In this document: positions 5,584-44,360 of the stretch, one piece after another
Numbering within the stretch: the stretch's first letter is position 1
How the letters are laid out: every line of letters begins with the position of its first letter
Assembly: GCF_964213995.1 (NCBI RefSeq)
Contig: NC_135825.1
Span: 12,028,001 to 12,092,000, forward strand
Reading direction: 5' to 3'
Length of the DNA stretch: 64,000 nt
Origin: Mustelus asterias
Taxonomy: Eukaryota
Program-made: the position numbers and the translations under genes
The notes under the pieces: model-generated
Seen by the model: only the letters and a program-made list of their open reading frames with translations
What the model was told of the DNA's origin: nothing
Database searches by the model: none

Positions 5584-5907
5584 AACCCGTGTCTGTTCCT
5601 GAACTTAAATTTCTATCACCACCAAATGCCTCATGTTCTGGGGGCTCAGTGTCCGTCTCCTGTGAGTCTGTCCAGGGATCACTTCCCATTCAGTACACAT
5701 GGTATGAAAAGACCCCGCCTGAAGATTCAAAGATCTCTGACACCAATAAACTGGATCTACATTGTCAATCCTTCAAACAGCAACATCATCAATATTACTG
5801 CACAGCCTCAAATAACCAGGGAGAAAAATCCAGTGAAATGGTTACGGTGTCAGTGATCCACATTTCAGAGAATGATTGCAGTTACTTAACACAAATCAGC
5901 AACCTTG
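5584..5907 (+). CDS. Ig C2/I-type exon C1
   Basis: cccacag|AACCCGTG...AACCTTG|gtaaat; 324 nt, phase 1/1; Ig motifs VSC, YTWY, YYC. Confidence 0.9.
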
Positions 5908-6332
5908 GTAAATATCACTTTCAGCTTCAAAAATTACAACTAATTTTAAAATTAATGTCTGTCTGAATTGCTCACGGGTTTATTTCTATTAGTCGAAGCA
6001 ATTTTAATAAAAATAGAATTGCATTTTATTTCGCTTTTCACAACTTCAGGACAGTTTTAAAGTCCGTTCTGGTCAATGCTGGAACTGATTCAGAGCCATT
6101 GTTGTGATGTAGGAAGCTCAGCACCAATTTGTGAGCAATAAGCTCCTTCAAGGAGCAATGTGATGATGAGCAGACAATCTGCTGTCTGACAATTGCTGTT
6201 TGAGAATACAATAACTCCAGGAGCCGGCTGTGAAGGAACCGTGCTTCTATTGTACAAAATGAAAATAATGAATTACCACACGTCTGTGGTGAGCACGACA
6301 GGTCCCAACCTGGACTAAAAGATTAATGGAAC

Positions 6333-6610
6333 TGATGCGTGATTAATTCACTCGGGAGGCTGGATTGTACCCGGGAAATAAAGGCTTTTATTAGCAACAA
6401 GAATAGAGCATACTTCTTAACAATACAATCCCAGACTAAAGGGTCACTAGGAAGTGCAGTGACCTTTATACTCCTATAGGAAGGCGGAGCCAACCGGAGT
6501 GTACCACAGAACAATACCAACAGTTGGAACACCCCAACCCTAACCCCAACAGTAACAAGAGTAACATATGTACAAATACCCATAGTGGTAACCATCTATG
6601 GTTCACCACA
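6333..6610 (-). repeat. Gypsy 3' LTR
   Basis: TGATGCG...CACCACA; direct repeat of 10710-11018; PPT (- strand AGGAGGGGTGAA) at 6611-6622. Confidence 0.9.
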
Positions 6611-6674
6611 TTCACCCCTCCTTTAAAAACAAAGGCCGGTGGGGCAAACAAAACAGTACGAACTGTCCATATAT

Positions 6675-9600
6675 TCACAAGTTCAGTCGTATCGGAGGTC
6701 CACACCGTCTCTGCGACCTCCGCAGCACTGGCGGTAGCGCCGGTTCTGGTGACCGTGGTGAGCCTCTCTCCAAGGTGGTGTCCAGTGACTCCTCCAGTTC
6801 CTCACGGACGGGTGGACCTCGAGGTGGCGAAAATCTCCTGGACTCAGGCAAGCCTCGAGGTGGCGATAACCTCCTCGACTCAGGCAATCTGTACACGGGA
6901 GTAAGAGGATTAAGTGGAGGTCCCGATACTGCCCGCGCCGTGTAAGGAGGGGAGAGAATGGGCAAAGGAACCCTAACCAGGTGTGCGGGAGCGACGGGGG
7001 TTTCCAGGTCCCCTGCGGGTGCCAGATCTCGGATAGAGACCGTGTCCTCTCGCCCATCAGGATATACTACATAGGCATATTGAGGGTTGGCGTGGAGGAG
7101 ATGGACCTGTTCAACCAAAGGGTCGGACGTGCGAGTCCTAACATGCCGCCGCAGGAGGACAGGTCCTGAGTACGTCAACCAAGACGGCAGTGAGGTCCCA
7201 GAGGAAGACTTCCTAGGGGAGGTAAACATCCGCTCATGTGGGGTAGGGTTGGTTGCCGGACACAGGAGGGACCGGATTGAATGGAGCGCATCAGAACGTA
7301 TCTCTTGCCAACGGGAGACTGGAAGACCCTTAGACCTCAACGCCAGTAAGACAGCCTTCCAGACTGTAGCGTTTTCTCTTTCGACCTGCCCGTTACCCCT
7401 GGGGTTGTAACTCGTAGTCCTACTTGAGGCAATTCCTTTAGAGAGCAGGTATTGCCTCAAGTCGTCGCTCATAAACGCCGAACCCCTATCACTGTCGATA
7501 TAACTGGGGTAGCCGAACAGGGTAAAAAGACTCCGCAGGGCTTTGATGACCTTGGCAGCGGACATGTCAGAACAGGGAATGGCAAAAGGGAATCGGGAGT
7601 ACTCATCAACCACGTTGAGGAAATACACATTCCGATCTGTGGAAGGAAGGGGGCCCTTGAAATCAACACTCAGTCATTCAAAAGGGCGAGTGGCCTTAAT
7701 GAGGTGTGCCTTGTCAGGTCGGTAGAAGTGCGGCTTGCATTCAGGACATACCTGGCAGCTTCGAGTTATCGACCTGACATCCTCTTTGGAGTAGGGCAGA
7801 TTCTGGGCCTTTACAAAATGGAAGAGCCGAGTGATCCCCGGATGGCAGAGATCATTGTGGAGGGCCTGTAGCCAGTCCTCCTGCACACTGGCACATGTTC
7901 CACGCGACAGGGCATCTGAGGGCTCATTGAGCTTCCCCGGACGGTACATGATATCATAGTTGTAGGTGGAGAGTTCGATTCTCCACCTCAAGATTTTATC
8001 ATTTTTAATTTTTCCCCTGAACGTGTTGTTGAACATGAATGCCACGGACCGCTGGTCCGTGAGCAGGGTAAATCGTTTTCCCGCCAAATAATGGCGCCAA
8101 TGCCGTACAGCCTCCACAATGGCCTGGGCTTCTTTTTCCACAGAGGAGTGCCGAATTTCAGGGCCTTGGAGGGTGCGAGAGAAAAAGGCGACGGGCCTAC
8201 CCGCCTGGTTAAGTGTGGCGGCCAGGGCGAAATCAGATGCATCACTCTCCACCTGGAAGGGGATGGACTCATCGACAGCGTGCATCGTGGCTTTCGTGAT
8301 GTCAGCTTTTATCCCTTCAAAGGCTAAACGAGCTTCTGCTGCCAGGGGAAACGAAGTAGACTTAATGAGCGGACGGGCTTTGTCCGCATAATTGGGAACC
8401 CACTGTGCGTAATACGAGAAGAAGCATAAGCATCTTCTCAGTGCTTTGATGCTAGTGGGTAGGGGAAGTTCAAGGAGGGGATGCATACGATCTGGATCAG
8501 GGCCAATGACCCCGTTTTCCACCACGTATCTGAGGATTGCTAGGCGGTGCTTGCTGAATACACACTTCTCCCTGTTATAGGTCAGATTCAGGCGAGACGC
8601 AGTGCGTAAAAACTTCAGGAGTTGGCGTCGTGGTCCTGATGGTCATGGCCGCAGATAGTGATGTTGTCCAGGTACGGGAATGTAGCCCGTAGCCTGTTTT
8701 GGTCCACCATTCGGTCCATTTCACGCTGGAAGACCGAGACCCCATTAGTGACGCCAAAAGGGACCCTTAAGAAGTGGTAGAGATGGCCATCCGCCTCAAA
8801 GGCCGTGTATTTTCGGTCCTCTGGGCGAACGGGAGCTGGTGGTAGGCTGACTTCAAGTCGATGGTGGAGAACATCCGGTACTGCGCAATCTGGTTGACCA
8901 TGTCAGATATGCGCGGGAGAGGGTACGCGTCCAGCTGCGTGTACCTATGAATGGTCTGACTATAGTCTATGACCATCCGGGCCTTGTCTCCAGTCTTAAC
9001 CACCACGACTTGCGCTCTCCATGGGCTAGTGCTAGGTTGAATGATCCCTTCCCTGAGGAGCTGCTGAACCTCAGATCGAATAAAGATCTGATCCTCAGCG
9101 CTGTAACGCCTGCTCTTAGTTGCGATGGACTTGCAGCCTGGCACAAGATTTTCAAATAAAGAAGGCGGGGTGGGTTTAAGTGTCAAGAGACTGCACGTGG
9201 AGCGTGCTGGACAATTTGGAGGCTGCTGTTCTCCCACTGAAAGTGGAGGGAGTGGCCCATCGTACTGCAGGGTCACACTCCTCAGGTGGACCATAAAGTC
9301 TAGTCCCAGGAGTACCGGAGCGCAAAGGTGCGGTAACACGAGGAGCCTGAAGTTCTCATAAACTGTGCTCCGCACCGTTAGAGTTACCACGCAGCTCCCA
9401 AGAACGGTAACAGATCGGGACCTCGACGCCATAGAGATTGTCTGCCTGACAGTTTGTACTCGGAGAGCGCACCGTTTCACGGTATCCGGATGAATGAAAC
9501 TCTCCGTGCTCCCGCTGTCAAACAGACAATGTATCAGGCGTCCGTTTACCTCTATGTCCATCATGGACTTGTCGAGTCTGTAAGGCTTGGCCTGGTCCAG

Positions 9601-10669
9601 GATGATTGATGCCACTGTTGGATCCCGAGTGCAACTGCAGGCAGCTGAGATGATCGATGATGAGGACCCCTGCTGATCGTCTGTGGCCGGTGTCGACCAA
9701 AATGGCTGCGCCCATGGATCGCATGTGGTCGATGGCGTTGAAAGTGGTGGCACTCGCAGGTCGCACGTGTCTTGCGTCGTCGTCCTCAGGAATGGCGGCG
9801 CCCGTGAATCGCACGTGGTTGAAGACATCGACAAAGCCAGAGACGAGGAGACGGATCCTGGGGAGTCACACGCAGCACAGCTTGGCTTCGAAGGGGGCTT
9901 CGCTCAGCACACTTTAGCACAGTGCCCTTTCTTTCCACAAGCGGAGCAAAATACCATCCTGGCCGGACATCTCTGGCGAGGGTGCTTCGCCAATCCACAG
10001 AAATAGCACCGTGGGCCTCCTGGAGCTGCCGCAGCCGTCAGGTCCGAGGTTGAAAGCACGATCGCGCAGTTCCTAGGAGCCGCTGGGTAGAGTTGAGTCG
10101 GTGGCTGTACTTGCCACGATGTTCCCACATGGTCGGTGGGGTAAGTTTCAAGACTTCGGGAGGCCGTTTCCATCGCATCAGCCAATTCCGCTGTCTTAGC
10201 TAGGTCTAAGTTACCCTGCTCCAGCAGCCGCAGGCGAATATAGGATGAGCCGATTCCCGCCACGAACGCGTCTCGGATCAGATCGTTATTGTATTGTAGC
10301 CGACACTAGCTTGCAATTGCAGGCTCTGGCTAGCTGCTGAGGTTTGCGCAGGTACCGTCCCGCCGTTTTGCCGGGCTGCCGCCGTCGAGTGGCTAGTAGG
10401 TGACGAGCATGAATCTCGTTTGGCGGTTTATGGTACAGCTTCTTGAGTAATTCGATGGCCTCTTTGTAGTCTTTGGAATCGTGGATTGTTGCATACACAG
10501 TGTCGCTTACCCTTGCGTAGAGGACCCGCAATCTGTCGGCGTTGTTTTGGACTGCTGTTGAGGTGTCGATATCATCCTGGAAACACTTCAACCAATGGTC
10601 GAAAGTGTTAGACGCTCCAGCGGAACGCGGATCAAAGGTAAGCCGATCGGGTTTTAACATTTGCTCCAT
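6675..10669 (-). pseudogene. Gypsy gag-pol, disrupted
   Basis: ORF pieces 10286-10669 and 9904-10263 (gag, CYFCGLAKHPRQRC), 8767-9834 (PR, RT N-term), 7674-8525 (RT/RH), 6675-7628 (IN). Confidence 0.9.
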
Positions 10670-10709
10670 GGTTGTTTTTTCTCAAAACAAAAATTGTTGC
10701 TAATAAAAT

Positions 10710-11018
10710 TGATGCGCAATTAATTCACTTGGGAGGCTGGATCGTACCCGGGAAATAAAGGCTTTTATTAGCAACAAGAATAGAGCATACTGCTTAACAA
10801 TACAATCCCAGACTAAAGGGTCACTAGGAAGTGCAGTGACCTTTATACTCCTATAGGAAGGCGGGAGCCAACCGGAGTGTACCACAGAACAATACCAACA
10901 GGTGGAACACCCCAACCCTAACCCCAACAGTAACAAGAGTAACATATGTACAAGTACCCATAGTGATAACCATCTATGGTTCAGTACCCATAGTGGTAAC
11001 CATCTATGGTTCACTACA
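10710..11018 (-). repeat. Gypsy 5' LTR (contains a ~30-bp internal tandem duplication)
   Basis: Repeat of 6333-6610; GTACCCATAGTG(A/G)TAACCATCTATGGTTCA occurs twice; - strand TATAAA and AATAAA present. Confidence 0.9.
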
Positions 11019-11262
11019 GAAACCACTCAAGATCTTGCTTTATAAAGGGCTTGGGATACAATCTCAATATGGTTGTCTAATTATCAATCCGCAGGAAGCA
11101 CATATTGAATGTTCCCAACGATATCAAACAAGGAAGTATCCAATTGCATTAGAAGATGTATTGGAGAGATTTCTCTGAACACAGTGGTAAATCCTATTGA
11201 AATATATCTGTTTGTATTGAGCAATTATTTTCAGTTCAATTTTTGACCTGTTGTCTTTTCAG

Positions 11263-11571
11263 CTCCAAGTGCATTGTGGGCAAACAATAATGTAATAGGA
11301 GTTTTGGGAAGATCGATCACTATAGATTGTCACTATGACAAATTGTCCCAGTCACATGTGAAATCTTGGAGTCGTCAGTGCTCTGTTTTGGTGAAATCAG
11401 ACGATCCAGATGGACGGCGAGGGAGAATGTCGATCACAGATAACAAGACACAAGGATTATTTGTTGTTACTATGGAGGATCTTCGCTCCGGAGATGCAGG
11501 ATGGTACAGCTGTGGAATTGATAAGCCCGGCTTCCTTTCAATATTTCCTGTAAAGCTACAAATATCTGACG
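11263..11571 (+). CDS. CD300/pIgR-like Ig V exon V1
   Basis: ttttcag|CTCCAAGT...TCTGACG|gtacat; 309 nt, phase 1/1; SITIDCHY...KSW...GRMSITD...DAGWYSCG. Confidence 0.9.
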
Positions 11572-12856: not shown

Positions 12857-13180
12857 AACCCGTGTCTGTTCCTGAACTTAAATTTCTATCACCACCAAAT
12901 GCTTCATGTTCTGGGGGCTCAGTGTCCGTCTCCTGTGAGTCTGTCCAGGGATCACTTCCCATTCGGTACACATGGTATGAAAAGACCCCGTCTGAAGATT
13001 CAAAGATCTCTGACACCAATAAACTGGATCTACATTGTCAATCCTTCAAACAGCAACATCATCAATATTACTGCACAGCCTCAAATCACCAGGGAGAAAA
13101 ATCCAGTGAAATGGTTACAGTGTCAGTGATCCACATTTCAGAGAATGATTGCAGTTATTTAACACAAATCAGCAACCTTG
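12857..13180 (+). CDS. Ig C2/I-type exon C2
   Basis: Open frame, intact splice sites, copy of C1. Confidence 0.88.
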
Positions 13181-13848: not shown

Positions 13849-14157
13849 CTGCAAGTGCATTGTGGGCAAAAGATAATGTAACAGGAGTTTTGGGAAGATC
13901 GATCACTATAGATTGTCACTATGACAAATTGTCTCAGTCACATGTGAAATCTTGGAGTCGTCAGTGCTCTGTTTTGGTGAAATCAGACGATCCAGATGGA
14001 CGGCGAGGGAGAATGTCGATCACAGATAACAAGACACAAGGATTATTTGTTGTTACTATGGAGGATCTTCGCTCAGGAGATGCAGGATGGTACAGCTGTG
14101 GAATTGATAAGCCCGACTTCCTTTCAATATTTCCTGTAAAGCTACAAATATCTGACG
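13849..14157 (+). CDS. Ig V exon V2
   Basis: Open frame, intact splice sites. Confidence 0.88.
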
Positions 14158-15434: not shown

Positions 15435-15758
15435 AACCCGTGTCTGTTCCTGAACTTAAATTTCTATCACCACCAAATGCCTCATGTTCTGGGGGCTCAG
15501 TGTCCGTCTCCTGTGAGTCTGTCCAGGGACCAGGTCCCATTCAGTACACATGGTATGAAAAGACCCCGTCTGAAGATTCAAAGATCTCTGACACCAATAA
15601 ACTGGATCCACATTGTCAATCCTTCACACAGCAACATCATCAATATTACTGCACAGCCTCAAATCACCAGGGAGAAAAATCCAGTGAAATGGTTACAGTG
15701 TCAGTGATCCACATTTCAGAGAATGATTGCAGTTACTTAACACAAATCAGCAACATTG
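15435..15758 (+). CDS. Ig C2/I-type exon C3 (private substitutions SL>PG, L>P)
   Basis: Open frame, intact splice sites. Confidence 0.75.
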
Positions 15759-16423: not shown

Positions 16424-16732
16424 CTCCAAGTGCATTGTGGGCAAAAAATGATGTAACAGGAGTTTTGGGAAGGTCGATCACTATAGATTGTCACTATGAC
16501 AAATTGTCCCAGTCACATGTGAAATCTTGGAGTCGTCAGTGCTCTGTTTTGGTAAAATCAGCCGATCCAGATGGACGGCGAGGGAGAATGTCGATCACAG
16601 ATAACAAGACACAAGGATTATTTGTTGTTACTATGGAGGATCTTCGCTCAGGAGATGCAGGATGATAGAGCTGTGGAATTGATAAGCCCGGCTTCCTTTC
16701 AATATTTCCTGTAAAGCTACAAATATCTGACG
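16424..16732 (+). pseudogene. Ig V exon V3 with two in-frame stops
   Basis: GGA TGG TAC AGC TGT in other copies reads GGA TGA TAG AGC TGT here (16663-16668); splice sites still intact. Confidence 0.9.
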
Positions 16733-18998: not shown

Positions 18999-19307
18999 CT
19001 CCAAGTGCATTGTGGGCAAACAATAATGTAATAGGAGTTTTGGGAAGATCGATCACTATAGATTGTCACTATGACAAATTGTCCCAGTCACATGTGAAAT
19101 CTTGGAGTCGTCAGTGCTCTGTTTTGGTAAAATCAGCCGATCCAGATGGACGGCGAGGGAGAATGTCGATCACAGATAACAAGACACAAGGATTATTTGT
19201 TGTTACTATGGAAGATCTTCGCTCAGGAGATGCAGGATGGTACAGCTGTGGAATTGATAAGCCCGGCTTCCTTTCAATATTTCCTGTAAAGCTACAAATA
19301 TCTGACG
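18999..19307 (+). CDS. Ig V exon V4
   Basis: Open frame, intact splice sites. Confidence 0.85.
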
Positions 19308-21914: not shown

Positions 21915-22223
21915 CTCCAAGTGCCTTGTGGGCAAAAAATAATGTAACAGGAGTTTTGGGAAGATCGATCACTATAGATTGTCACTATGACAAATTGTCC
22001 CAGTCACATGTGAAATCTTGGAGTCGTCAGTGCTCTGTTTTGGTAAAATCAGACGATCCAGATGGACGGCGAGGGAGAATGTCGATCACAGATAACAAGA
22101 CACAAGGATTATTTGTTGTTACTATGGAGGATCTTCGTTCGGGAGATGCAGGATGGTACAGCTGTGGAGTTGATAAGCCCGGCTTCCTTTCAATATTTCC
22201 TGTAAAGCTACAAATATCTGACG
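21915..22223 (+). CDS. Ig V exon V5
   Basis: Open frame, intact splice sites. Confidence 0.85.
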
Positions 22224-23796: not shown

Positions 23797-24133
23797 GTAA
23801 CTATCACTTTAAGCTTCAGAAAATTCAATTAATTTTTAAATTAATGTCTGTTTGCATTGCTCACGGGTTTAGTTCTATTGGTCGTTCAAAGAAATTTCAA
23901 TAAAAATGGAATTGCATTTATTTTTCACTTTTCACAACTTCAGGACAGTTTTAAAGTCAGTTCATAGAACATAGAACAAAGTAAAAATACAGCACAAACA
24001 GGCCCTTCGGCCCACAAGTTGCACCGGTCATGTCCCTACCTACCTAAGCTTACAAAGAACAAAGAACAAAGAACAGTACAGCACAGGAAACAGGCCCTTC
24101 GGCCCTCCAAGCCTGTGCCGCTCCTTGGTCCAA

Positions 24134-27058
24134 CTAGACCAATCGTTTGTATCCCTCCATTCCCAGGCTGCTCATGTGACTATCCAGGTAAGTCTTAAAC
24201 GATGTCAGCGTGCCTGCCTCCACCACCCTACTTGGCAGCGCATTCCAGGCCCCCACCACCCTATGTGTAAAAAACGTCCCTCTGATGTCTGAGTTATACT
24301 TCGCCCCTCTCACGTTGAGCCCGTGACCCCTCGTGATCGTCACCTCCGACCTGGGAAAAAGCTTCCCACTGTTCACCCTATCTATACCCTTCATAATCTT
24401 GTATGCCTCTATTAGATCTCCCCTCATTCTCCGTCTTTCCAAGGAGAACAACCCCAGTCTACCCAATCTCTCCTCATAGCTAAGACCCTCCATACCAGGC
24501 AACATCCTGGTAAACCTTCTCTGCACTCTCTCCAATGCCTCCACGTCCTTCTGGTAGTGCGGCGACCAGAACTGGACGCAGTACTCCAAATGTGGCCTAA
24601 CCAGCGTTCTATACAGCTGCATCATCAGACTCCAGCTTTTATACACTATACCCCGTCCTATAAAGGCAAGCATACCATATGCCTTCTTCACCACCTTCTC
24701 CACCTGTGTTGCCACCTTCATGGATTTGTGGACTTGCACACCTAGGTCCCTCTGTGTTTCTATACTCCTGATGACTCTGCCATTTATTGTATAACTCCTC
24801 CCTACATTATTTCTTCCAAAATGCATCACTTCGCACTTATCCGGATTAAATTCCATCTGCCACCTCTCCGCCCAATTTTCCAGCCTATCTATATCCTGCT
24901 GTATTGCCCGACAATGCTCTTCGCTATCCGCAATTCCAGCCATCTTCGTGTCATCCGCAAACTTGCTGATTACACCAGTTACACCTTCTTCCAAATCATT
25001 TATATATATCACAAATAGCAGAGGTCCTAGTACAGAGCCCTGCGGAACACCACTGGTCACAGACCTCCAGCCGGAAAAAGACCCTTCGACCACTACCCTC
25101 TGTCTCCTATGGCCAAGCCAGTTCTCCACCCATCGAGCCACTTCTCCTTGTATCCCATGAGCCTTAACCTTCTTAACCAACCTGCCATGTGGGACTTTGT
25201 CAAATGCCTTACTGAAATCCATATAGACGACATCCACGGCCCTTCCTTCATCAACCGTTTTTGTCACTTTCTCAAAAAACTCCACCAAATTTGTAAGGCA
25301 CGACCTCCCTCTTACAAAACCATGCTGTCTGTCACTAATGAGATTGTTCCGTTCTAAATGCACATACATCCTGTCTCTAAGAATCCTCTCCAACAACTTC
25401 CCTACCACGGACGTCAAGCTCACCGGCCTATAATTTCCTGGGTTATCCCTGCTACCCTTCTTAAACAACGGGACCACATTCGCTATCCTCCAATCCTCAG
25501 GGACCTCACCCGTGTCCAAAGAAGCGACAAAGATTTCCGTCAGAGGCCCAGCAATTTCACCTCTCGTCTCCCTGAGCAGTCGAGGATAGATGCCATCAGG
25601 CCCTGGGGCTTTGTCAGTTTTAATGTTCCCTAAAAAACCTAACACTTCCTCTCTCGTAATGGAGATTTTCTCTAACGAGTCAACACCTCCCTCCGAGACA
25701 CTCCCGGTTAACACGCCCCTCTCCTTCGTGAATACCGATGCAAAGTATTCATTTAGGATCTCCCCTATTCCCTTGGGTTCTAAGCATAATTCCCCTCCTT
25801 TGTCCCTGAGAGGTCCGATTTTCTCCCTGACAACTCTTTTGTTCCTAATGTATGAATAGAATGCCTTAGGATTCTCCTTAATCCTGCCTGCCAAGAACAT
25901 CTCGTGCCCTCTTTTTGCCCTTCTAACTCCCCGTTTGAGATCTTTCCTACTCTCTCTGTATTCCTCCAGAGCTCCATCTGTTTTCAGTTGCCTGGACTTA
26001 ACGTACGCCTCCCTTTTCATTTTAATCAGATCCTCAATTTCCCTGGTTATCCACGGCTCTCGAATCCTACCTTTCCTATCTTTCCTTTTTACAGGCACAT
26101 GCCTATCCTGCAGCCTTTTCAATAGTTCCTTAAAAGACTCCCACATGCCAGACGCGGACTTACCCTCGAACATCCTCTCCCAATCAACATCCACCAATTC
26201 CTGCCTAATCTGGCTATAGTCAGCCTTCCCCCAATTTAGCACCCTGCCCGAAGGACAGCACTCATCCTTGTCCATTACTATCCTAAAGTTAACAGAGTTG
26301 TGGTCACTATTTGCCACATGTTCCCCTACCGAAACTTTGACGACCTGACCGGGCTCATTTCCCAGAACTAGGTCCAGTATAGCCCCCTCTCTAGTCGGGC
26401 TATCTACATACTGTTCCAAAGAACCTTCCAGTACGCATTTCACAAATTCCTCCCCGTCCGGTCCCCCAGCTCTAAGCACTTTCCAGTCTGTGCCAGGGAA
26501 ATTAAAGTCCCCCACTACAACAACCCTATTTTTTCTGCACCTATCCAGAATCTCCTGACATATCCTTTCCTCCACTTCCCGTGGGCTGTTGGGTGGTCTG
26601 TAGTACACCCCCAGCATAGTGACTGCACCCTTCCTGTTTCTGAGTTCCACCCACAGCGACTCAGTACATGACCCCTCTAAGTTGTCTACCCTCTGCACCG
26701 CGGTAATATGCTCCTTAACTAATATCGCTACTCCCCCACCTTTTTTAGCCCCTCCTCTGTCTCGCCTAAAACACTGATACCCCGGAATATTCAGCTGCCA
26801 GTCCTGTCCTTCTTTTAACCAAGTTTCCGTCACCGCAACCACATCCAAATTCCGCACAAGCATTAAGGCCCTAAGTTCGTCTGTTTTACCCGTTACGCTC
26901 CTCGCATTGAAGCAGATGCACTCCAGACCTCCAGGCCCAGTCAGGTCCTCCTCCTCCAGAGTGCTCCTCTTCTTAGCTAGCCTTGCCCTGGCCCCCAGCT
27001 CGACCCCAGCCTCAGTATTTACTGACCTCCTGTTCTGTTCCCCACCCCCCTGCCACAC
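24134..27058 (-). CDS. CR1 ORF2 (AP endonuclease plus reverse transcriptase), 974 aa
   Basis: Motifs VTETWL, GDFN, SDHN, NYRPVSL, DFSKAFD, GVPQGSVLGP, FADD; uninterrupted frame. Confidence 0.92.
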   Translation of the reverse strand: MWQGGGEQNRRSVNTEAGVELGARARLAKKRSTLEEEDLTGPGGLECICFNARSVTGKTDELRALMLVRNLDVVAVTETWLKEGQDWQLNIPGYQCFRRDRGGAKKGGGVAILVKEHITAVQRVDNLEGSCTESLWVELRNRKGAVTMLGVYYRPPNSPREVEERICQEILDRCRKNRVVVVGDFNFPGTDWKVLRAGGPDGEEFVKCVLEGSLEQYVDSPTREGAILDLVLGNEPGQVVKVSVGEHVANSDHNSVNFRIVMDKDECCPSGRVLNWGKADYSQIRQELVDVDWERMFEGKSASGMWESFKELLKRLQDRHVPVKRKDRKGRIREPWITREIEDLIKMKREAYVKSRQLKTDGALEEYRESRKDLKRGVRRAKRGHEMFLAGRIKENPKAFYSYIRNKRVVREKIGPLRDKGGELCLEPKGIGEILNEYFASVFTKERGVLTGSVSEGGVDSLEKISITREEVLGFLGNIKTDKAPGPDGIYPRLLRETRGEIAGPLTEIFVASLDTGEVPEDWRIANVVPLFKKGSRDNPGNYRPVSLTSVVGKLLERILRDRMYVHLERNNLISDRQHGFVRGRSCLTNLVEFFEKVTKTVDEGRAVDVVYMDFSKAFDKVPHGRLVKKVKAHGIQGEVARWVENWLGHRRQRVVVEGSFSGWRSVTSGVPQGSVLGPLLFVIYINDLEEGVTGVISKFADDTKMAGIADSEEHCRAIQQDIDRLENWAERWQMEFNPDKCEVMHFGRNNVGRSYTINGRVIRSIETQRDLGVQVHKSMKVATQVEKVVKKAYGMLAFIGRGIVYKSWSLMMQLYRTLVRPHLEYCVQFWSPHYQKDVEALERVQRRFTRMLPGMEGLSYEERLGRLGLFSLERRRMRGDLIEAYKIMKGIDRVNSGKLFPRSEVTITRGHGLNVRGAKYNSDIRGTFFTHRVVGAWNALPSRVVEAGTLTSFKTYLDSHMSSLGMEGYKRLV

Positions 27059-27400
27059 TAGTTTAAATCCTGCCGAAACACTCTCGCAAAACTCCCAGCC
27101 AGGATATTTGCTCCCTTCCAGTTAAGGTGTAACCCATCCTTTCTGTACAGTTGCCATCCTGACTTGAAGATTTCCCAGTTATCTATGAATTTAAAACCCT
27201 CCCTCTTGCACCAGTCCTTTAGCCACGCGTTCAACTGTAGAATCTCCCTGTTCCGAGCCTCACTTGCACTAGGCACCGGGAGCAGTCCAGAGATTGCGAC
27301 ACTGGAGGTCTTACTTTTTAGCCTAGCACCCAACTCCCTGAATTTCTCTCGTATGACCCCCCTGCTCTTCCTACCTACATCATTTCCCCCAATGTGTACA
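27058..27400 (-). pseudogene. CR1 ORF1 C-terminal fragment (SGNH esterase-like)
   Basis: ISGLLPVP...NAWL..WC..EGF.F...W.....LYRKDGLHLN. Confidence 0.75.
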
Positions 27401-28577
27401 ATCAGGCTTACTTATAACCCTCAATCCTATTAAGTCCCATGTACTCATCCAGAAGTCTCTTAAAAGACCCTATCGAGATTGCCTCCACCACCACTGACGG
27501 TAGTCGATTCCACTCACCCATCACCCTCTGAGTGAAAAACTTACCCCTGACATCTCCTCTGTACCTACTCCCCAGCACCTTAAACCTGTGTCCTCTCGTA
27601 GCAGCCATTTCAGCCCGGGGAAAGAGCCTCCGAGAATCCACCTGATCTATACCTCTCAACATCTTGTACACCTCTATCAGGTCACCTCTCATCCTTCGTC
27701 TCTCCAAGGAGAAAAGACCGAGCTCCCTCAACCTATCCTCCTAAGGCATGCCAACCAATCCAGGCAACATCCTTGTAAATCTTTTCTGCACCCTTTCAAT
27801 CATTTCCACATCCCTCCTGTAATGAGGCGACCAGAACTGAGCACAGTACCCCAAGTGGGGTCTGACGAGGGTCTTATAAAACTGCATCATTATCGCCTGA
27901 CTCCTAAACTCAATCCCTCACTTGATGAAGGCCAGCACACCATACGCCTTCTTAACCACCTCCTCTACCTGCGATGCCGATTTAAGAGTCCTATGGACCC
28001 AGACTCCAAGGTCCTTCTGATCCTCTACACTGCTAAGAGTCTTACCCTTTATATTATACTCCTTCATCCCATTTGACCTGCCAAAATGGACCACTACGCA
28101 TTTATCCAGGTTGAAGTCCATCTCCCACTTCTCCGCCCAGTCTTGCATCCTATCTATGTCACGTTGCAGCTTCTGACATCCCTCCAACCTATCCACAACA
28201 CCACCAACCTTCGTGTCGTCGGCAAACTTACCAACCCATCCCTCCACTTCCTCATCCAGGTCATTTATGAAAATGACAAACAGCAAGGGTCCCAGAACAG
28301 ATCCCTGGGGCACTCCACTGGTGACCGACCTCCATTCAGAAAAAGACCCATCTACAACCACTCTCTGCCTTCTGCAGGCAAGTCAGTTCTGGATCCACAA
28401 GGCAACAGCATCTTGGATCCCATGCCCTCTCACTTTCTCGAGAAGTCTTGCATGGGGGACCTTATCGAACGCGTTGCTGAAGTCCATGTAAACCACATCT
28501 ACCGCTTTTCCTTCGTCAATGTGTTTAGTCACATTTTCAAAGAACTCCAACAGGCTCGTCAGGCACGATTTGCCCTT

Positions 28578-29594
28578 GGCTGGAGGTCTGTGACCAGTGG
28601 TATTCCGCAGGGTTCTGTACTGGGGCCTCTGCTATTTGTGATATATATAAATGATTTGGAAGAAGGTGTAACTGGTGTAATCAGCAAGTTTGCGGATGAC
28701 ACGAAGATGGCTGGACTTGCGGATAGCGAAGAGCATTGTCGGGCAATACAGCAGAATAGAGATAGGCTGGAAAATTGGGCGGAGAGGTGGCAGATGGAGT
28801 TTAATCCGGATAAATGAGAAGTGATGCATTTTGGAAGAAATAATGTAGGGAGGAGTTATACAATAAATGGCAGAGTCATCAGGAGTATAGAAACACAGAG
28901 GGACCTAGGTGTGCAATTCCACAAATCCATGAAGGTGGCAACACAGGTGGAGACGGTGGTGAAGAAGGCATATGGTATGCTTGCCTTTATAGGAGGGGGT
29001 ATAGAGTATAAAAGCTGGAGTCTGATGATGCAGCTGTATAGAACGCTGGTTAGGCCACATTTGGAGTACTGCGTCCAGTTCTGGTCGCCGCATTACCAGA
29101 AGGATGTGGAGGCGTTAGAGAGAGTGCAGAGAAGGTTTACCAGGATGTTGCCTGGTATGGAGGGTCTTAGCTATGAGGAAAGATTGGGTAAACTGGGGTT
29201 GTTCTCCCTGGAAAGACGGAGAATGAGGGGAGATCTAATAGAGGTGTACAAGATTATGAAGGGGATAGATAGCGTGAACAGTGGGAAGTTTTTTCCCAGG
29301 TCGGAGGTGACGATCACGAGGGGTCACGGGCTCAAGGTGAGAGGGGCGAAGTATAACTCAGATATCAGAGGGATGTTTTTTACACAGAGGGTGGTGGGGG
29401 CCTGGAATGCGCTGCCATGTAGGGTGGTGGAGGCAGGCACGCTGACATCGTTTAAGACTTACCTGGAAAATCACATGAGCAGCCTGGGAATGGAGGGATA
29501 CAAACGATTGGTCCAGTTGGACCAAGGAGCGGCACAGGCTTGGAGGGCCGAAGGGCCTGTTTCCTGTGCTGTACTGTTCTTTGTTCTTTGTTCT
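28578..29594 (+). mobile_element. CR1 family B, 5'-truncated, opposite orientation, nested in CR1-A
   Basis: RT C-terminus nearly identical to the reverse complement of 24053-25075; (TTCTTTG)n tail; one stop at ~28815. Confidence 0.88.
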
Positions 29595-30998
29595 GTGCTG
29601 ACTACTTTTGAGCATACTAAACTTCTCTAAATGTTCATAAATCCTGTCCCTCAGGATCTTTTCCATCAACTTACCAACCACTGAGGCTAGACTCACCGGT
29701 CGGTAATTTCCTGGGCTATCCCTATTCCCTTTCTTGAATATAGGAACCACGTCTGCAATCCTCCAATCCTCCAGAACCTCTCCCGTCTCTATCGACGACG
29801 CAAAGATCATCGCCAGAGGCTCTGCAATCTCTTCCTTCACCTCCCACAGTAACCTGGGGTACATCCCATCCGGTCCCGGCGACTTATCTATCTTGGTGCT
29901 ATTCAAAATTTCCAATACATCCTCTTTATTAATGTACTCAATCTTTTCAGTCCGCCTCAATCCTGTCGTACAACCACCCAGGTCTTTTTCTACCGTGAAT
30001 ACCGAGGTAAAATATTCATTAAGCACCTCTGATATTTCTTCCGGTTCTGTACAGACTTTGTCACCTTCACATTTTATAGGTCCTATTCCTACACATCTCA
30101 TCCTTTTACTCTTCACATATTTATAGAACGCCTTAGGGTTCTCCTTAATCTGATCTGCCAAGGTCTTCTCGTGACCCCTTCTGGCTCTCCTAAATTCTTT
30201 CTTAAGTCCCTTCCTACAAGCCGTATCCTCATCTAGATCGCTATCATTGCCTAGCTCTCTGAACCTTTTGTACGCTTTCCTTTTCTTTTTGACTAGGTTC
30301 AGTGCAGCTTTCGTGCACCACGGTTCCCGTAACCTACAAACACCTCCCTGTCTCATCGGAACGTTGTCATGCAGTACTCCAGACAAACATTCCTTGAAAA
30401 TCTGCCACCTTACTTCAGTACATTTCCTCGAGAGTGCCTCCTTCCAATTTACGCCTCTAATCTCCTGCCTGACGGCTTCATATTTCCCTTTTCACTCTGG
30501 TCACTGCTGGAACTGATTCAGAGCCATTGTTGTGATGTAGGAAGCTCAGCACCAATTTGTGAGCAATAAGCTCCCTCAAAGAGCAATGTGATCATGAGCA
30601 GACAATCTGCTGGTTGACAATTGCTGTTTGAGAATATAATAACTCCAGGAGCCGGATGTGAAGGAACCGTGCTTTTATTGTACTAAATGAAAATATACAA
30701 TAACCACACGCCTGTGGTAAATACAACAGGTCCCAACGTGGACTAAAAGATTAATGGACCCTCTCAAGGTCTTGCTTCATAAAGGGCTTGGGATACAATC
30801 TCAATATGGTTGTCTAATTATCAATCCGCGGGGAGCACATATTCAATGTCCCCAACGATCTCAACAAGGAAGTATCCAATTGCATTAGAAGATGTATTGG
30901 AGAGATTTCTCTGAACACAGCGGTAATTCCTATTGAAATATATGTGTTTGTATGAAGCAATTATTTTCAGTTCAATTTTTGACCTGTTGTCTTTTCAG

Positions 30999-31307
30999 CT
31001 CCAAGTGCATTGTGGGCAAAAAATAATGTAATAGGAGTTTTGGGAAGATCGATCACTATAGATTGTCAGTATGACAAATTGTCCCAGTCACATGTGAAAT
31101 CTTGGAGTCGTCAGTGCTCTGTTTTGGTAAAATCAGACGATCCAGATGGACGGCGAGGGAGAATGTCGATCACAGATAACAAGACACAAGGATTATTTGT
31201 TGTTACGATGGAGAATCTTCACTCAGGAGATGCAGGATGGTACAGCTGTGGTATTGATAAGCCCGGCTTCCTTTCAATGTTTCCTGTAAAGCTCCAAATA
31301 TCTGACG
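30999..31307 (+). CDS. Ig V exon V6
   Basis: Open frame, intact splice sites. Confidence 0.85.
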
Positions 31308-33588: not shown

Positions 33589-33897
33589 CTCCAAGTGCCT
33601 TGTGGGCAAAAAATAAAGTAACAGGAGTTTTGGGAAGATCGATCACTATAGATTGTTACTATGACAAATTGTCCCAGTCACATGTGAAATATTGGAGTCG
33701 TCAGTGCTCTGTTTTAGTAAAATCAGACGATCCAGATGGACGGCGAGGGAGAATGTCGATCACAGATAACAAGACACAAAGATCATTTGTTGTTACGATT
33801 GAGGATCTTCGCTCAGGAGATGCAGGATGGTACAGCTGTGGTATTGATAAGCTCGGCTTCCTTTCAATATTTCCTGTAAAGCTCCAAATATCTGACG
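33589..33897 (+). CDS. Ig V exon V7
   Basis: Open frame, intact splice sites. Confidence 0.85.
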
Positions 33898-36167: not shown

Positions 36168-36476
36168 CTCCAAGTGCCTTGTGGGCAAAAAATGATGTAA
36201 CAGGAGTTTTGGGAAGGTCGATCACTATAGATTGTCACTATGACAAATTGTCCCAGTCACATGTGAAATCTTGGAGTCGTCAGTGCTCTGTTTTGGTAAA
36301 ATCAGATGATCCAGATGGACGGCGAGGGAGAATGTCGATCACAGATAACAAGACACAAAGGTCATTTGTTGTTACGATTGCGGATCTTCGTTCAGGAGAT
36401 GCAGGATGGTACAGCTGTGGTATTCATAAGCACGACGTCCTTTCAATATTTCCTGTAAAGCTACAAATATCTGACG
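36168..36476 (+). CDS. Ig V exon V8
   Basis: Open frame, intact splice sites; divergent FG loop IHKHDVL. Confidence 0.85.
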
Positions 36477-36741
36477 GTACATTGTTCTCAGTGATTATCT
36501 TTATTACTCTCAACTGAAATGTCTGATCGGTGCTTTATCTGGGAGGAGACATTGACAGCTCCGTTATCCCGCGGCTTCGCAGCAGTGCAGAGTCTGGCAG
36601 CGAGAGGGCAGTTAGAACAATGATTATGTTGGAGGAATTGTAATTCAGAGGCCCAGAGTAATGATCCAGAGAGATGGAGTCAGATTTATTGCACCTTGGA
36701 CCCTGCTCTCCTGGCTAACAAGTTGGCAGGAACCACATCCA

Positions 36742-37829
36742 AGGGGCTGTTGCCTTGTGGATCCAGAACTGGCTTGCCTGCAGAAGGCAGAGAGTGGCTG
36801 TGGAGGGGTCTTTCTCTGCATGGAGGTCAGTGACCAGTGGAGTGCCCCAGGGATCTGTTCTGGGACCCTTGCTGTTTGTCATTTTCATAAATGACCTGGA
36901 TGAGGAAGTGGAGGGATGGGTTGGTAAGTTTGCTGACGACACCAAGGTAGGTGGTGTTGTTGATAGTTTGGAGGGATGTCAGAAGTTGCAGCGAGACATA
37001 GATAGAATGCAAGACTGGGCGGAGAAGTGGCAGATGGACTTCAACCCGGATAAGTGTGTGGTGATCCATTTTGGCAGATCCAATGGGATGAAGCAGCAGT
37101 ATAATATGAAGGGTACCATTCTTAGCAGTGTAGAGGATCAGAAGGACCTTGGGGTCCGGGTCCATAGGACTCTTAAATCGGCCTCGCAGGTGGAGGATGC
37201 GGTCAAGAAGGCGTACGGCGTACTGGCCTTCATTAATCGAGGGATTGAGTTTAGGAGTCGGGAGATAATGCTGCAGCTTTATAGGACCCTGGTTAGACCC
37301 CACTTGGAGTACTGCGCGCAGTTCTGGTCACCTCATTACAGGAAAGATGTTGAAGCCATTGAAAGGGTGCAGAGGAGATTTACAAGGATGTTGCCTGGAT
37401 TGGGGGGCATGCCTTATGAGGATAGGTTGAGGGAGCTTGGTCTCTTCTCCCTGGAGAGACGAAGGATGAGAGGTGACCTGATAGAGGTTTACAAGATGTT
37501 GAGAGGTCTGGATAGGGTAGACTCTCAGAGGCTATTTCCAAGGGCTGAAATTGTTGCTACGAGAGGACACAGGTTTAAGGTGCTGGGGGGTAGATACAGA
37601 GGAGATGTCAGGGGTAAGTTTTTCACTCAGAGGGTGGTGGGTGAGTGGAATCGGCTGACGTCAGTGGTGGTGGAGGCAAACTCGTTGGGGTCTTTTAAGA
37701 GACTTCTGGATGAGTACATGGGATTTAATGGGATTGAGGGCTATAGATAGGCCTAGAGGTGGGGATGTGATCGGCGCAACTTGTGGGCCGAAGGGCCTGT
37801 TTGTGCTGTGGCTTTCTATGTTCTATGTT
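36742..37829 (+). mobile_element. CR1 family A, 5'-truncated, in intron V8-C9
   Basis: Open RT C-terminal frame 36755-37750, (TTCTATG)n tail, TSD CATCCA (36736-36741 / 37830-37835). Confidence 0.9.
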
Positions 37830-38855: not shown

Positions 38856-39179
38856 AACCTGTGTCTGTTCCTGAACTTAGATTTCTATCACCACCAAATG
38901 CCTCATGTTCTGGGGGCTCAGTGTCCGTCTCCTGTGAGTCTGTCCAGGGATCACTTCCCATTCAGTACACATGGTACGAAAATACCACATCTGAAGATTC
39001 AAAGATCTCTGACACCAATAAACTGGATCTACATTGTCAATCCTTCAAACAGCAACATCATCAATATTACTGCACAGCCTCAAATAACCAGGGAGAAAAA
39101 TCCAGTGAAATGGTTACAGTGTCAGTGATCCACATTTCAGAGAATGATTGCAGTTACTTAACACAAATCAGCAACCTTG
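38856..39179 (+). CDS. Ig C2/I-type exon C9
   Basis: Open frame, intact splice sites. Confidence 0.85.
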
Positions 39180-39845
39180 GTAAATATCACTTTAAGTTTC
39201 AAAAAATTCAACTAATTTTTAAATTAATGTCTGTCTGAATTGCTCACGGGTTTAGTTCTATTGGTCGTTCAAAACAATTTTAATAAAAATAGAATTGCAT
39301 TTTTTTTTCACTTTTCGCAACTTCAGGACAGTTTTAAAGTCAGTTCTGGTCAATGCTGGAACTGATTCAGAGCCATTGTTGTGATGTAGGAAGCTCAGCA
39401 CCAATTTGTGAGCAATAAGCTCCCTCAAGGAGCAATGTGATCATGAGCAGACAATCTGCTGTCTGACAATTGCTGTTTGAGAATACAATAACTCCAGGAG
39501 CCGGATGTGAAGGAACCGTGCTTCTATTGTACAAAATGAAAATAAACAAGAACCACACGCCGTGCTAAACACAACAGGTCCCAACCAGGACTAAAAGATG
39601 AATGGGCCCTCTCAAGGTCTTGCTTTTAAAAGGGCTTGGTGAACAATCTCTATATGGTTGTCTAATTGTCAATCCTCGGGAAGCACATATTCAATGATCC
39701 CAACGATTTCAAACAGGGAAATATTTAATTGCATTAGAAGATGTATTGGAGAGATTTCTCTGAACACAGTGGTAAATCCTATTGAAATATATGTTTGTAT
39801 TAAGCAGTTATTTTCAGTTCAATTTTTGACCTGTTGTCTTTTCAG

Positions 39846-40154
39846 CTCCAAGGGCCTTGTGGGCCAAAAATAATGTAACCGGAGTTTTGGGAAGATCGAT
39901 CACTATAGATTGTCACTATGACAAATTGTCCCAGTCACATGTGAAATATTGGAGTCGTCAGTGCTCTGTTTTGGTAAAATCAGACGATCCAGATGGACAG
40001 CGAGGAAGAATGTCGATCACAGATCACAAGACACAAGGATTATTTGTTGTCACTATGGAGGATCTTCGCTCAGGAGATGAAGGATGGTACAGCTGTGGTA
40101 TTGATAAGCCCGGCTTCCTTTCAATATTTCCTGTAAAGCTCCAAATATCTGACG
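39846..40154 (+). CDS. Ig V exon V9
   Basis: Open frame, intact splice sites. Confidence 0.85.
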
Positions 40155-41440
40155 GTACATTGTTCTCAGTGATTATCTTTATTACTCTCGACTGAAATGT
40201 CTGATCGGTGCTTTATCTGGGAGGAGACATTGACAGCTCCGATATCCCGAGGCTCCGCAGCAGTGCAGAGTCTGGCAGCTAGAGGGCAGTTAGAACAATG
40301 ATCATGTTGGAGGAATTGTAATTCAGAGGCCCAGAGTAATGATCCAGAGAGATGGGGTCAGATTTATTGCACCTTGGAACCCGCTCTCCTGGTTAACAAG
40401 TTGGCAAGGACCTCACCCATGCTCCCGATGCCTGGACAATAGACCTTGACCCGTTCCCGGATACTCACCAGATACTCACCAACAGCTCACTTCTTCCCCT
40501 GCAGTAAATTCACTCAGCTCATTAAACCTCCACACTCGGTTGAAGGCAGACTCCAGTGCTGGTTGCACTGAGAATGCCTGAATTTATATGTTCAAAAACA
40601 AAGTGACTCAGTACAAAAAGACCAGTTCAAGCCAGTTTCCCCAATTAACTATTCCAGTTGCTGCCAGTGGATAGCTTCTATCTCCCAGCTCATGCCCTTT
40701 GGATGGTACTTACGTCAGAATTTTACTGCTTCGCCCGCCATGGTATCGGAGCGGGTGTGGGGCAGACAACGGAAATGTCTGTTGACCTTGGGCAAGATTT
40801 TCCACTCTCGCTCATTCGAGACCATAAATCCCCGCCCTCGACTTTAAACAGTACTCACACTTAAATGTTAAATGGTACTTACTGTTAAATGAAAAATACA
40901 AATCCAAATAATGGCCGAATTTCACCGAACCTGTCCGCAGCTGGAATTATCCAGTCCCGCTGCTGTGAACTGAGTTTTGCTGAGCGCCAATTTCCCTATT
41001 CCAACTGGCAGCAGGGCGGATCACTCGATATCAGAGAATTCAGGTCAAGATTAGATTTTTAGATAGATATTTAAGTCTCCGTTATCTCAGCAAACATCCA
41101 CAGTCTATCTCAGGTCACACTCCAATGCTTGTTGCTATCTAACCTGCTATCATGAATATCTGCTGTCCGCGACAGCAATCAATAGATACTACCTGCATTC
41201 GGCCAAGCTCCCACTGCCATCTCTCTCTCTCTCTCTAACAATTTCCCTTCCTCCTCACACACTGGATGAGGTGTAGAAATATTGGTAATATGAAACTATT
41301 TAATTTTTTGGTCATTCTCAAGTTTAAAGTTTCAAAGTTTAAAGTTAAAGCTTTTTAAAATTTGTGTCACAAGTAGGCTTACATTAACACTGCAATGAAG
41401 TTACTGTGAAAATCCGTTCATGATTGTCCTTTTCCCACAG

Positions 41441-41764
41441 AACCCGTGTCTGTTCCTGAACTTAAATTTCTATCACTGCCAAATGCCTCATGTTCTGGGG
41501 GCTCAGTGTCCCTCACCTGTGAGTCTGTCCAGGGATCACTTCCCATTCAGTACACATGGTATGAAAAGACCCCGTCTGAAGATTCAAAGATCTCTGGCAC
41601 CAATAAACTGGATCTACATTGTCAATCATTCAGACAGCAACATCATCAATATTACTGCACAGCCTCAAATAAACAGGGAGAAAAATCCAGTGAAATGGTT
41701 ACAGGGTCAGTGATCCACATTTCAGAGAATGATTGCAGTTATGTGACTCAAATCAGCAACATTG
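41441..41764 (+). CDS. Ig C2/I-type exon C10
   Basis: Open frame; translated ORF identical to C7. Confidence 0.85.
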
Positions 41765-42433
41765 GTAAATATCACCTTAAGTTTCAAAAGATTCAACTAA
41801 TTTCTAAATTAATGTCTGTCTGAATTGCTCACAGGTTTAGTTCTATTGGCCGTTCAAAGCAATTTTAATAAAAATAGAATTGCATTCGTTTTTCACTTTT
41901 CACAACTTCAGGACAGTTTTAAAGTCCGTTCTGGTCAATGCTGGAACTGATTCAGAGCCATTGTTGTGATGTAGGAAGCTCAGCACCAATTTGTGAGCAA
42001 TAAGCTCCCTCTAAGAGCAATGTGATGATGATCATACAATCTGCAGTCTGACAATTGCTGTTTGAGAATATAATAATTCCAGGAGCCGGCTGTGAAGGAA
42101 CCGTGCTTCTATTGTACAAAATGAAAATAAACAAGAACCACACGCCTGTGGTGAACACAACAGGTCCCAACCAGGACTAAAAGATTAATGGAACCGCTCA
42201 AGGTCTTGCTTTATAAAGGGTTTGGTATACAATCTCAATATGGTTGTCTAATTATCAATCCGCAGGAAGCACATATTGAATGACCCCAATGATCTCAAAC
42301 AAGAAAGTATCCAATTGCATTGGAAGATGTATTGGAGAGATTTCTCTGAACACAGTGGTAATTCCATTTGAAATATATCTGTTTCTATTCAACAATTATT
42401 TTCAGTTCAATTTTTGACCTGTTGTCTTTTCAG

Positions 42434-42742
42434 CTCCAAGTGCATTGTGGGCAAAAAATAATGTAACAGGAGTTTTGGGAAGATCGATCACTATAGATTG
42501 TTACTATGACAAATTGTCCCAGTCACATGTGAAATCTTGGAGTCGTCAGTGCTCTGTTTTGGTAAAATCAGACGATCCAGATGGACGGCGAGGGAGAATG
42601 TCGATCACAGATAACAAGACACAAAGATCATTTGTTGTTACGATTGAGGATCTTCGCTCAGGAGATGCAGGATGGTACAGCTGTGGTATTGATAAGCCCG
42701 GCTTCCTTTCAATATTTCCTGTAAAGCTACAAATATCTGACG
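42434..42742 (+). CDS. Ig V exon V10
   Basis: Open frame, intact splice sites. Confidence 0.85.
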
Positions 42743-44036
42743 GTACATTGTTCTCAGTGATTATCTTTATTACTCTTGACTGAAATGTCTGATCGGTGCT
42801 TTATCTGGGAGGAGACATTGCCAGCTCCGATATCCCGAGGCTCCGCAGCAGTGCAGAGTCTGGCAGCTAGAGGGCAGTTAGAACAATGATTATGTTGGAG
42901 GAATTGTAATTCAGAGGCCCAGAGTAATGATCCAGAGAGATGGGGTCAGATTTATTGCACCTTGGAACCCGCTCTCCTGGTTAACAAGTTGGCAGGAACC
43001 ACACCCATGCTCCCGATGGCTGGACAATAGACCTTGACCCCATCCCGGATACTCCCCAGATACTCACCAACAGCTCACTTCTTCCCCTGTCGTAAATTCC
43101 ATCAGCTCATTAAACCTCCACACTCGGTTGAAGTCAGACTCCAGTGCTGGTTGCACTGAGAATGTCTGAATTTATATTTTCAAAAACTAAGGGACTCGAT
43201 TCAAAAAGACCAGTTCAAGCCAGTTTCCCCAATTAACTATTCCAGATGCTGCCAGTGGATAGCTTCTATCTCCCAGCTCATGCCCTTTGGATGATACTGA
43301 GTCAGAATTTTACTGCCTCGCCCGCCATGGTATCGGAGCGGGTGTGGGGCAGACAACGGAAATGTCTGTTGACCTTGGGCGGGATTTTACAGTCTCGCTC
43401 ATTCGAGGCCATAAAACTCCGCCGTAGACTTTAAACAGTACTCACACTTAAATGTTAAATGGTACTTCATGTTAAATGTTAGTAAAATGTTAAATACAAA
43501 TACAAACAATGGCAGGAATTCACTAAACTCGTCCGCAGCTGGAATTATCCAGTCCCGCTGCTGTGAATGGCATTTGGCTGAGCATCAAATTCCCTATTCC
43601 AACTGACAGCGGCGACGGATCGCTCGATATCGGAAAATTCAGGTCAAGATTAGATTTTTAGAAAGATATTTAAGTCCCCGTTATCTCAGCAAACATCCAC
43701 AGTCTGTCTCAGGTCGCACTCCAATGCTTGTTCCTAACTAATCTGCTATCATGAATATCTGCTGTCCATGACAGCAATCAATAGATACTACCTACATTCG
43801 GCTAGTTCCCACTGCCATCTCTCTCTCTATCTAACACTTGCCCTTCCTCCTCACACCCTGGATGAGGTGTTGAAATATTTGTAATATGATATTATTTAAT
43901 TTTTTCGTCATTCTTAAGTTTAAAATTTTGAATTTTAAAGTTAAAGCATTTTTAAATTCGCGTCACAAGTAGGCTTACATTAACACTGCAATGAAGTTAC
44001 TGTGAAAATCCGTGAATGATTGTCTTCTTCCCACAG

Positions 44037-44360
44037 AACCCGTGTCTGTTCCTGAACTTAGATTTCTATCACCACCAAATGCCTCATATTCTGGGGGCTC
44101 AGTGTCCGTCTCCTGTGAGTCTGTCCAGGGATCACTTCCCATTCAGTACACATGGTATGAAAAGGCCCCGTCCGAAGATTCAAAGATCTCTGACACCAAT
44201 AAACTGGATCTACATTGTCAATCCTTCAAACAGCAACATCATCAATATTACTGCACAGCCTCAAATAACCAGGGAGAAAAATCCAGTGAAATGTTTAACA
44301 TTTCAGTGATCAACGGATTAGGGGAGAATTGCAGTTATGTGACACAGATCAACAACGTTG
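44037..44360 (+). CDS. Terminal (membrane-proximal) Ig C2/I-type exon C11
   Basis: Open frame, distinct 3' end (FNISVINGLGENC), consensus donor GTAAGT, unique downstream intron. Confidence 0.9.

Follow-up and report, generated by a model that had tools for sequence, protein, structure and literature searches.

The DNA analysed here is a window of 64,000 nucleotides from the shark Mustelus asterias (NCBI RefSeq assembly GCF_964213995.1, contig NC_135825.1, positions 12,028,001 to 12,092,000, forward strand), and it contains a long array of immunoglobulin (Ig) exons belonging to one gene, hereafter the array gene. Between positions 5584 and 44360 (coordinates are those of the window, plus strand, unless stated otherwise), 11 C exons of 324 nucleotides alternate with 10 V exons of 309 nucleotides at a period of about 2.58 kb, interrupted by a long terminal repeat (LTR) retrotransposon and by insertions of long interspersed nuclear elements (LINEs). 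The V exons match the Pfam V-set domain and the C exons a generic Ig domain. Because the last C exon has a different 3' end, the repeat unit is C followed by V'. A preliminary description of the locus had stated that every Ig exon is a multiple of three in length with phase 1 at both ends, and this holds for all 21, each of which is bounded by AG and GT; such symmetry is usual among Ig exons, and hence no more than expected.

The array opens with C0 (5584..5907), a C2/I-type exon of phase 1-1, followed by V1 (11263..11571), C1 (12857..13180), V2 (13849..14157), C2 (15435..15758), V3 (16424..16732), C3 (18007..18330) and V4 (18999..19307). C4 (20942..21265) is the first exon of a block found in the same order in a neighbouring gene, D, and is followed by V5 (21915..22223), C5 (23473..23796), V6 (30999..31307), C6 (32596..32919), V7 (33589..33897), C7 (35177..35500), V8 (36168..36476), C8 (38856..39179), V9 (39846..40154), C9 (41441..41764) and V10 (42434..42742). 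C6 and C9 are identical over all 324 nucleotides, whereas all ten V exons differ in sequence. The FG loop reads IDKPGF in six of the ten V exons, and IDKPDF, VDKPGF, IDKLGF and IHKHDV (the last in V8) in one each; these variants, and the GLF/RSF variation, are present as first described. The introns of the units differ by 7.6-7.8% (0.076 and 0.078 by pairwise blastn), which argues against a simple stutter of the assembly. Codons 80-81 of V3 are, in the assembly sequence, two adjacent in-frame stops, TGA TAG, so that, as had been recognised, a membrane form requires that V3 be skipped. No other internal V copy in the surrounding cluster (one of 30) carries a stop. The neighbouring C2 has private substitutions S32P, L33G and L58P; at 15530-15534, three changes within five nucleotides create a second CCAGG beside an upstream CCAGG, which looks like a single template-switch event.

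Downstream, the array ends in a terminal-type C exon, C10 (44037..44360), with a different 3' end, the donor G/GTAAGT (the slash marks the exon boundary) and a private Cys17Tyr change. It is followed by a Ser/Pro-rich stalk exon of 79 nucleotides (46716..46794, phase 1-2), the peptide of which is also found in the RefSeq model of gene D (P0073), a transmembrane exon of 89 nucleotides (49264..49352, phase 2-1) whose hydrophobic span has no charged residue, a first cytoplasmic exon of 53 nucleotides (50923..50975, phase 1-0), and a last coding exon (53177..53311) encoding IVYASV and VTYATL before a stop that genes D and J also have. Past this stop, 53312-53462 preserves what is left of a longer tail, including one more, stranded tyrosine motif (IYANI); other paralogues retain four tyrosine motifs, and in gene F the position of the stop is occupied by CAG. 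The window does not reach the leader exon (contig position 12019900) or a distal V exon, V0 (contig 12025407-12025724), both of which are situated upstream. The complete formula is therefore L-V0-(C-V')10-C-stalk-TM-tail, with an ectodomain of 22 Ig domains, or 2454 codons if read straight through.

By its sequence features the array gene is a shark MDIR-family (CD300/pIgR-like) receptor. V0 and C10 are 52% (54/104, E 8e-38) and 58% (60/104, E 2e-37) identical to skate MDIR2 (ABC86796.1), and the best PDB sequence matches of V0 are pIgR, CD300/CMRF35, NKp44 and TREM2. V0 retains the CC' motif K-Y-W-C...C that provides the second disulfide, whereas the internal V' copies lack the cysteine together with four residues of the CC' loop. 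A leader, a neutral transmembrane segment and two predicted motifs resembling the immunoreceptor tyrosine-based inhibitory motif (ITIM) give the protein type I membrane features, and the gene belongs to a large multigene family. A V-only ectodomain, as in a true pIgR, is not seen, as C2/I-type domains alternate with V. In its passages on the family, PMC3031540 treats MDIRs as multigenic activating and inhibitory receptors akin to CD300, TREM and pIgR, and PMC4016189, where it deals with its own screen, reports a pIgR homologue to be missing from the sharks covered. For a basking-shark V-C-V'-C protein, the AlphaFold model (pLDDT 82.8, pTM 0.46) gave no inter-domain geometry on which a disulfide at the C-V' boundary could be judged, and Foldseek returned only generic multi-Ig matches, with pIgR first. 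MDIRs reportedly have one to six domains in the description by Cannon in 2006.

The short V' is not peculiar to Mustelus. Among 64 database proteins it occurs, once per model and also without the cysteine, in six other shark species; thus the V0-C-V'-C form is old, whereas the tenfold amplification, judging from the species sampled, looks recent. Over 764 kb of contig (70 stretches plus the window), the cluster contains 22 leader exons, 23 distal-type V exons and 30 internal V' exons, and the number of units per gene is 0 in H, 1 in F and G1-G4, 2 in C and I, 5 in D, 6 in J and 10 in the array gene. Gene D stands head to head with the array gene and has two intron insertions in common with it; the tails of the two are 96-98% identical, while their units differ by about 8%. 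In trees of the V exons, V5 pairs with D V2, as does V6 with D V3 (both with bootstrap 100), these being the closest copies, and V7 groups with V10 (bootstrap 99), likewise its closest copy. This pairing unit by unit, at about 8% divergence, dates the core of the array to before the array gene and D separated. V1-V4 and V9-V10 are most readily explained as duplications that arose within the array afterwards, for which the V7-V10 grouping and the identity of C6 and C9 provide support. Length variation therefore lies in the genome, as unit number between paralogues. The suggestion of a length-variable receptor survives in this form, as a difference between genes.

Certain gene models bear on how this cluster is to be read. 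RefSeq proteins of Mustelus asterias map at 99-100% to neighbouring genes, and the model of gene D has all five units in order. Other models fuse neighbouring genes, as evidenced by an internal leader in P0005, and the models named 'titin-like' and 'pIgR-like' split or fuse adjoining genes. No database protein encoded by the window was found among 64 matches (180-2000 residues) or 29 (801-2552 residues), a weak negative that would fit an annotation as pseudogene.

The preliminary description had held that the V copies of the array differ mainly in three regions: the N-terminal strand, the DE region and the FG loop. In Nei-Gojobori pairwise averages with codon bootstraps, where the pairs are interdependent, the ten array V exons (identity 86-99%, mean 92%) have a proportion of nonsynonymous differences per site (pN) of 0.031 (0.020-0.044) and of synonymous differences (pS) of 0.076; C0-C9, without C10, give 0.033 and 0.066. 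On these proportions both sets of copies are under purifying selection. The three named regions, which had been chosen for being variable, have pN of 0.076, 0.076 and 0.063, against 0.076-0.078 in the introns, and thus vary no more than neutral sequence, the very outcome that had been set down in advance as speaking against diversifying splicing. For loops defined by the fold, pN is 0.035 and pS 0.044, with a framework pN of 0.030. V0 behaves differently. Between six related genes its mean identity is 79%, and in its loops pN is 0.167 (0.107-0.236) and pS 0.061 (0.006-0.131), rising to a pN of 0.29 in the FG loop, while the intron adjoining V0 diverges by 0.032 over a short stretch. The contrast between V0 and the array V copies places specificity at the tip, between genes.

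With regard to splicing, the V donor G/GTACAT is present in nine of the ten array V exons (V5 has G/GTAAAT), as had been noted in calling it weak. The same donor is found on 16 of the 23 distal V exons of the cluster, single-V genes included, and is therefore inherited and no mark of a cassette. The splice sites of V3 are like those of the other copies. Docking-type complements (exact matches of 10-14 nucleotides in at least six of the ten units, sought in three flank stretches with G-U pairs disallowed, the V0-C0 intron being covered outside its retroviral part) did not exceed 30 shuffles. Nor is the arrangement that of Dscam-type clusters: V and C alternate strictly, and are not alternatives for one domain position. 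A separate candidate, a 10-nucleotide intron stretch complementary to the polypyrimidine tract of V' that might have acted as a splice switch, was rejected. It pairs at 0.87 or better in 15 of the 24 copies located (six of 30 were not located), a figure equalled by 43 of 2000 shuffles; it had been chosen post hoc, ranks 203rd among 290 intron windows in conservation, below the typical window, is disrupted in several copies, and has no compensatory change that could be recognised by eye.

Of 17 sequencing runs listed, none is recorded as RNA, which speaks neither for nor against expression. One run from another species, taken as RNA by guess only, has two splice-like joints, C to V' and V to C, whereas three of the four runs aligned to C2-V3 cover the introns and have no splice joint, and so look like DNA. 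Among the four joints listed, none joins V to V or C to C, although the contigs drop rare forms, and the private letters of C2 were not seen in run contigs, in which the copies collapse. A C-C junction does exist hard-wired, as gene H (contig 12286460-12291546) has the arrangement V0-C-C, without V'.

Two pairs of inverted LINE copies lie in the array. The first (27404-28418 and 36737-37754, about 1 kb, 89-92% complementary) flanks V6-C6-V7-C7-V8; if its two copies paired, all five exons could be looped out in frame. The second (24053-25072 and 28578-29597, 97%) lies inside one intron.

Several lesions are private to the array gene: the V3 stops, the Cys17Tyr change in C10, two changes at V0 and the LTR retrotransposon. 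A young LINE has inserted beside the V0 acceptor, replacing all but 6 nucleotides of the adjoining native intron, and the V0 donor has been weakened to A/GTATAT. The LTR retrotransposon lies in the C0-V1 intron (6333..11020, minus strand), with protease, reverse transcriptase (RT), RNase H and integrase in separate frames and LTRs that are 96.7% alike; a LINE fragment in the V8-C8 intron (36742..37829, plus strand) is likewise private. The LINE insertions in the C5-V6 intron (23964..30495) include a 995-residue endonuclease/RT frame, and both of their junctions are also present in gene D. Private amino-acid and stop changes in the array gene number 17, against 43 expected at the intron rate, while silent changes number 12, with 12 expected; on this measure the gene was constrained until recently, and the private lesions point to a null allele of recent origin, in a cluster that evolves by birth and death.

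Taken together, we consider it probable, if well short of settled, that the array gene is an MDIR-family receptor whose ten C-V' copies likely form a conserved stalk under one variable tip, and that the allele in this assembly has likely been disabled recently. Unequal crossing-over between units would have expanded an old V0-C-V'-C form, first to at least five units in the common ancestor with D and later to ten. By analogy with CD300 and TREM, V0 would bind a ligand, held away from the cell by a rod of 22 Ig domains that, from the usual length per Ig domain, may measure roughly 80-90 nm, and the two tyrosine motifs, which read as ITIMs, would attract inhibitory phosphatases. Under default splicing, translation would terminate at the V3 stops, about 730 residues in, and the transcript would probably undergo nonsense-mediated decay.

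A number of observations weigh against this reading. The ligand binding of V0 and the role of the stalk are carried over from what is known of CD300 and TREM. The pN and pS intervals of the V0 loops overlap slightly, and the values are pairwise averages of interdependent pairs. In the array FG loop all changes are non-synonymous (pN 0.072, pS 0.000, ten copies), with a pN about twice that of the framework, and it is the only loop at the level of the introns; across the cluster, in 27 of the 30 copies (three near-identical ones dropped), its pN is 0.086 and its pS 0.049. The V' FG loop may thus be mildly diversified. Downstream of V3 there are nine private amino-acid changes where 31 are expected; constraint past V3 fits a very young stop, and equally fits translation by way of skipping. 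Lastly, in three of ten RefSeq protein pairs entire Ig exons are missing from one member with the frame kept: isoform X2 in Hemiscyllium lacks exactly the 103-residue V' with no mismatch elsewhere, a Pristis isoform lacks a C and V together and a further V, and a Mobula isoform lacks V0. A Heptranchias pair differs by a V-C block, but may represent fused genes. Limited exon skipping is thereby made plausible by analogy with the relatives, although their isoforms are leads only, since they come from automated models and RefSeq fuses genes in this cluster.

These last observations bear most directly on a second explanation, in which the gene works: V3, or C2-V3, would be skipped in frame, and cassette skipping of the ordinary kind would give a small number of isoforms with stalks of different length under the same V0 tip. 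We regard this as doubtful, though of the alternatives it survives best. All exons are symmetric, constraint continues downstream of the stops, and C2, beside V3, carries the most radical private changes, as if the two exons had been released together; the isoforms of Hemiscyllium, Pristis and Mobula and the inverted LINE copies around V6-V8 point the same way. However, V3 has the same splice sites as the other copies, and in the array gene alone the two splice sites of V0 have both been damaged. The isoforms come from automated models; short reads mis-map among repeats, and RefSeq models of the Mustelus cluster fuse neighbouring genes. The sequence by itself cannot separate a null allele from V3 skipping.

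An extension of these ideas, which we consider rather unlikely, is that shark MDIRs vary along two axes, with a selected V0 tip that sets specificity and an expandable C-V' stalk that sets how far the receptor extends, between 2 and 22 Ig domains; in the array gene, splicing around V3 and other units would then tune reach within one animal. If so, one inhibitory tip would be displayed at many heights above the glycocalyx.

Far less probable is the scheme of the preliminary description, a Dscam-like combinatorial splicing that would yield a RAG-independent repertoire of binding specificities. Every subset of exons would remain in frame, the ten V exons all differ, and the FG-loop changes are non-synonymous throughout; yet the copies are highly alike with pN below pS, the named loops do not exceed the introns, six of the ten V exons have one and the same FG loop, C6 equals C9, flank complementarity to most units stays within shuffles, the donor is ancestral, and V and C alternate, with no cluster of exons competing for a single position. 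As V0 is the diversified domain, a combinatorial repertoire of recognition finds no support in these copies, and on present evidence the locus does not offer a RAG-independent antigen-receptor repertoire. An artefact of assembly or haplotype that produced the V3 stops, or some portion of the array, such that the true allele encodes an intact receptor of 2454 codons, is very improbable, for although V3 has no private coding changes beyond these two neighbouring stops, and C6 equals C9, the window contains no N, unit introns differ by 3-9%, around V7 and V10 too, and the remaining private lesions are whole insertions.

Read as a stalked MDIR, the array gene is an unusually long variant of a known family. 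Skate MDIR2 has a similar V and C pair and the same leader, transmembrane segment and tyrosine motifs, but comprises a single V-C pair in place of 22 Ig domains, ten of them a V' without the second-disulfide cysteine. CD300/CMRF35, TREM, NKp44 and pIgR have the K-Y-W-C...C motif in common with V0; CD300 and TREM have a single V, and pIgR has five V and no C2 domains. The RefSeq names 'pIgR-like' and 'FcRL5-like' are labels of similarity, not orthology. The XFL genes of Xenopus, which encode FcR-like paired receptors, form a large cluster in which, according to the part of PMC2413239 that treats their architectures, intragenic recombination has varied domain composition, with one domain present up to seven times. 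The mode of evolution is the same as in the shark array, although XFL proteins consist of C2-only FcR-like domains and the shark repeat is a two-exon C-V' unit present ten times.

Insect Dscam1, like the shark array, has tandem duplicated Ig exons within one gene. There, one exon per cluster is chosen, by docking and selector RNA pairing, among strongly divergent alternatives, whereas in the shark array the copies share 92% identity, V exons alternate with C exons, and a docking signal was not found. Siglec-1, CEACAM5 and CR1 carry a distal binding domain on a repeated stalk, and in CR1 the repeat number varies between alleles; their domains are unrelated or distant, and they are not known to have a comparable inhibitory tail. 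No literature on shark MDIR arrays or their splicing was found in a search whose coverage excluded most subscription journals, and in what it did cover the MDIRs, which are little studied, are mentioned in passing. The locus gives a full genomic picture of the MDIR family in a shark, with a diversified tip and a stalk of 0-10 units, and the range of unit number between near-identical paralogues represents a natural series in which ectodomain length can be set against inhibitory signalling.

Other features lie within and around the array gene. From position 1 to about 3700 of the window, and continuing upstream, the V0-C0 intron holds an endogenous-retrovirus-like element. An env-like open frame occupies 7-957 of the minus strand and weakly matches Pfam TLV_coat; matches to the LTR edges at the same intron in D and J suggest that the element predates their split. 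At contig positions 12142000-12272000, four near-identical V0-C-V'-C-stalk genes are spaced by about 37 kb and have no transmembrane or tail match; by sequence they are predicted to be truncated or secreted duplicates, and RefSeq fuses them in models P0002 and P0003. More distant V domains, at 32-48% identity, occur outside the cluster analysed, at contig 12635000-12777000, and possibly represent other CD300-like subfamilies. Within the window, an MDIR-type leader exon at 58705-58741 (plus strand) has no V exon between it and the next gene downstream, and is likely the orphan of a partial duplication.

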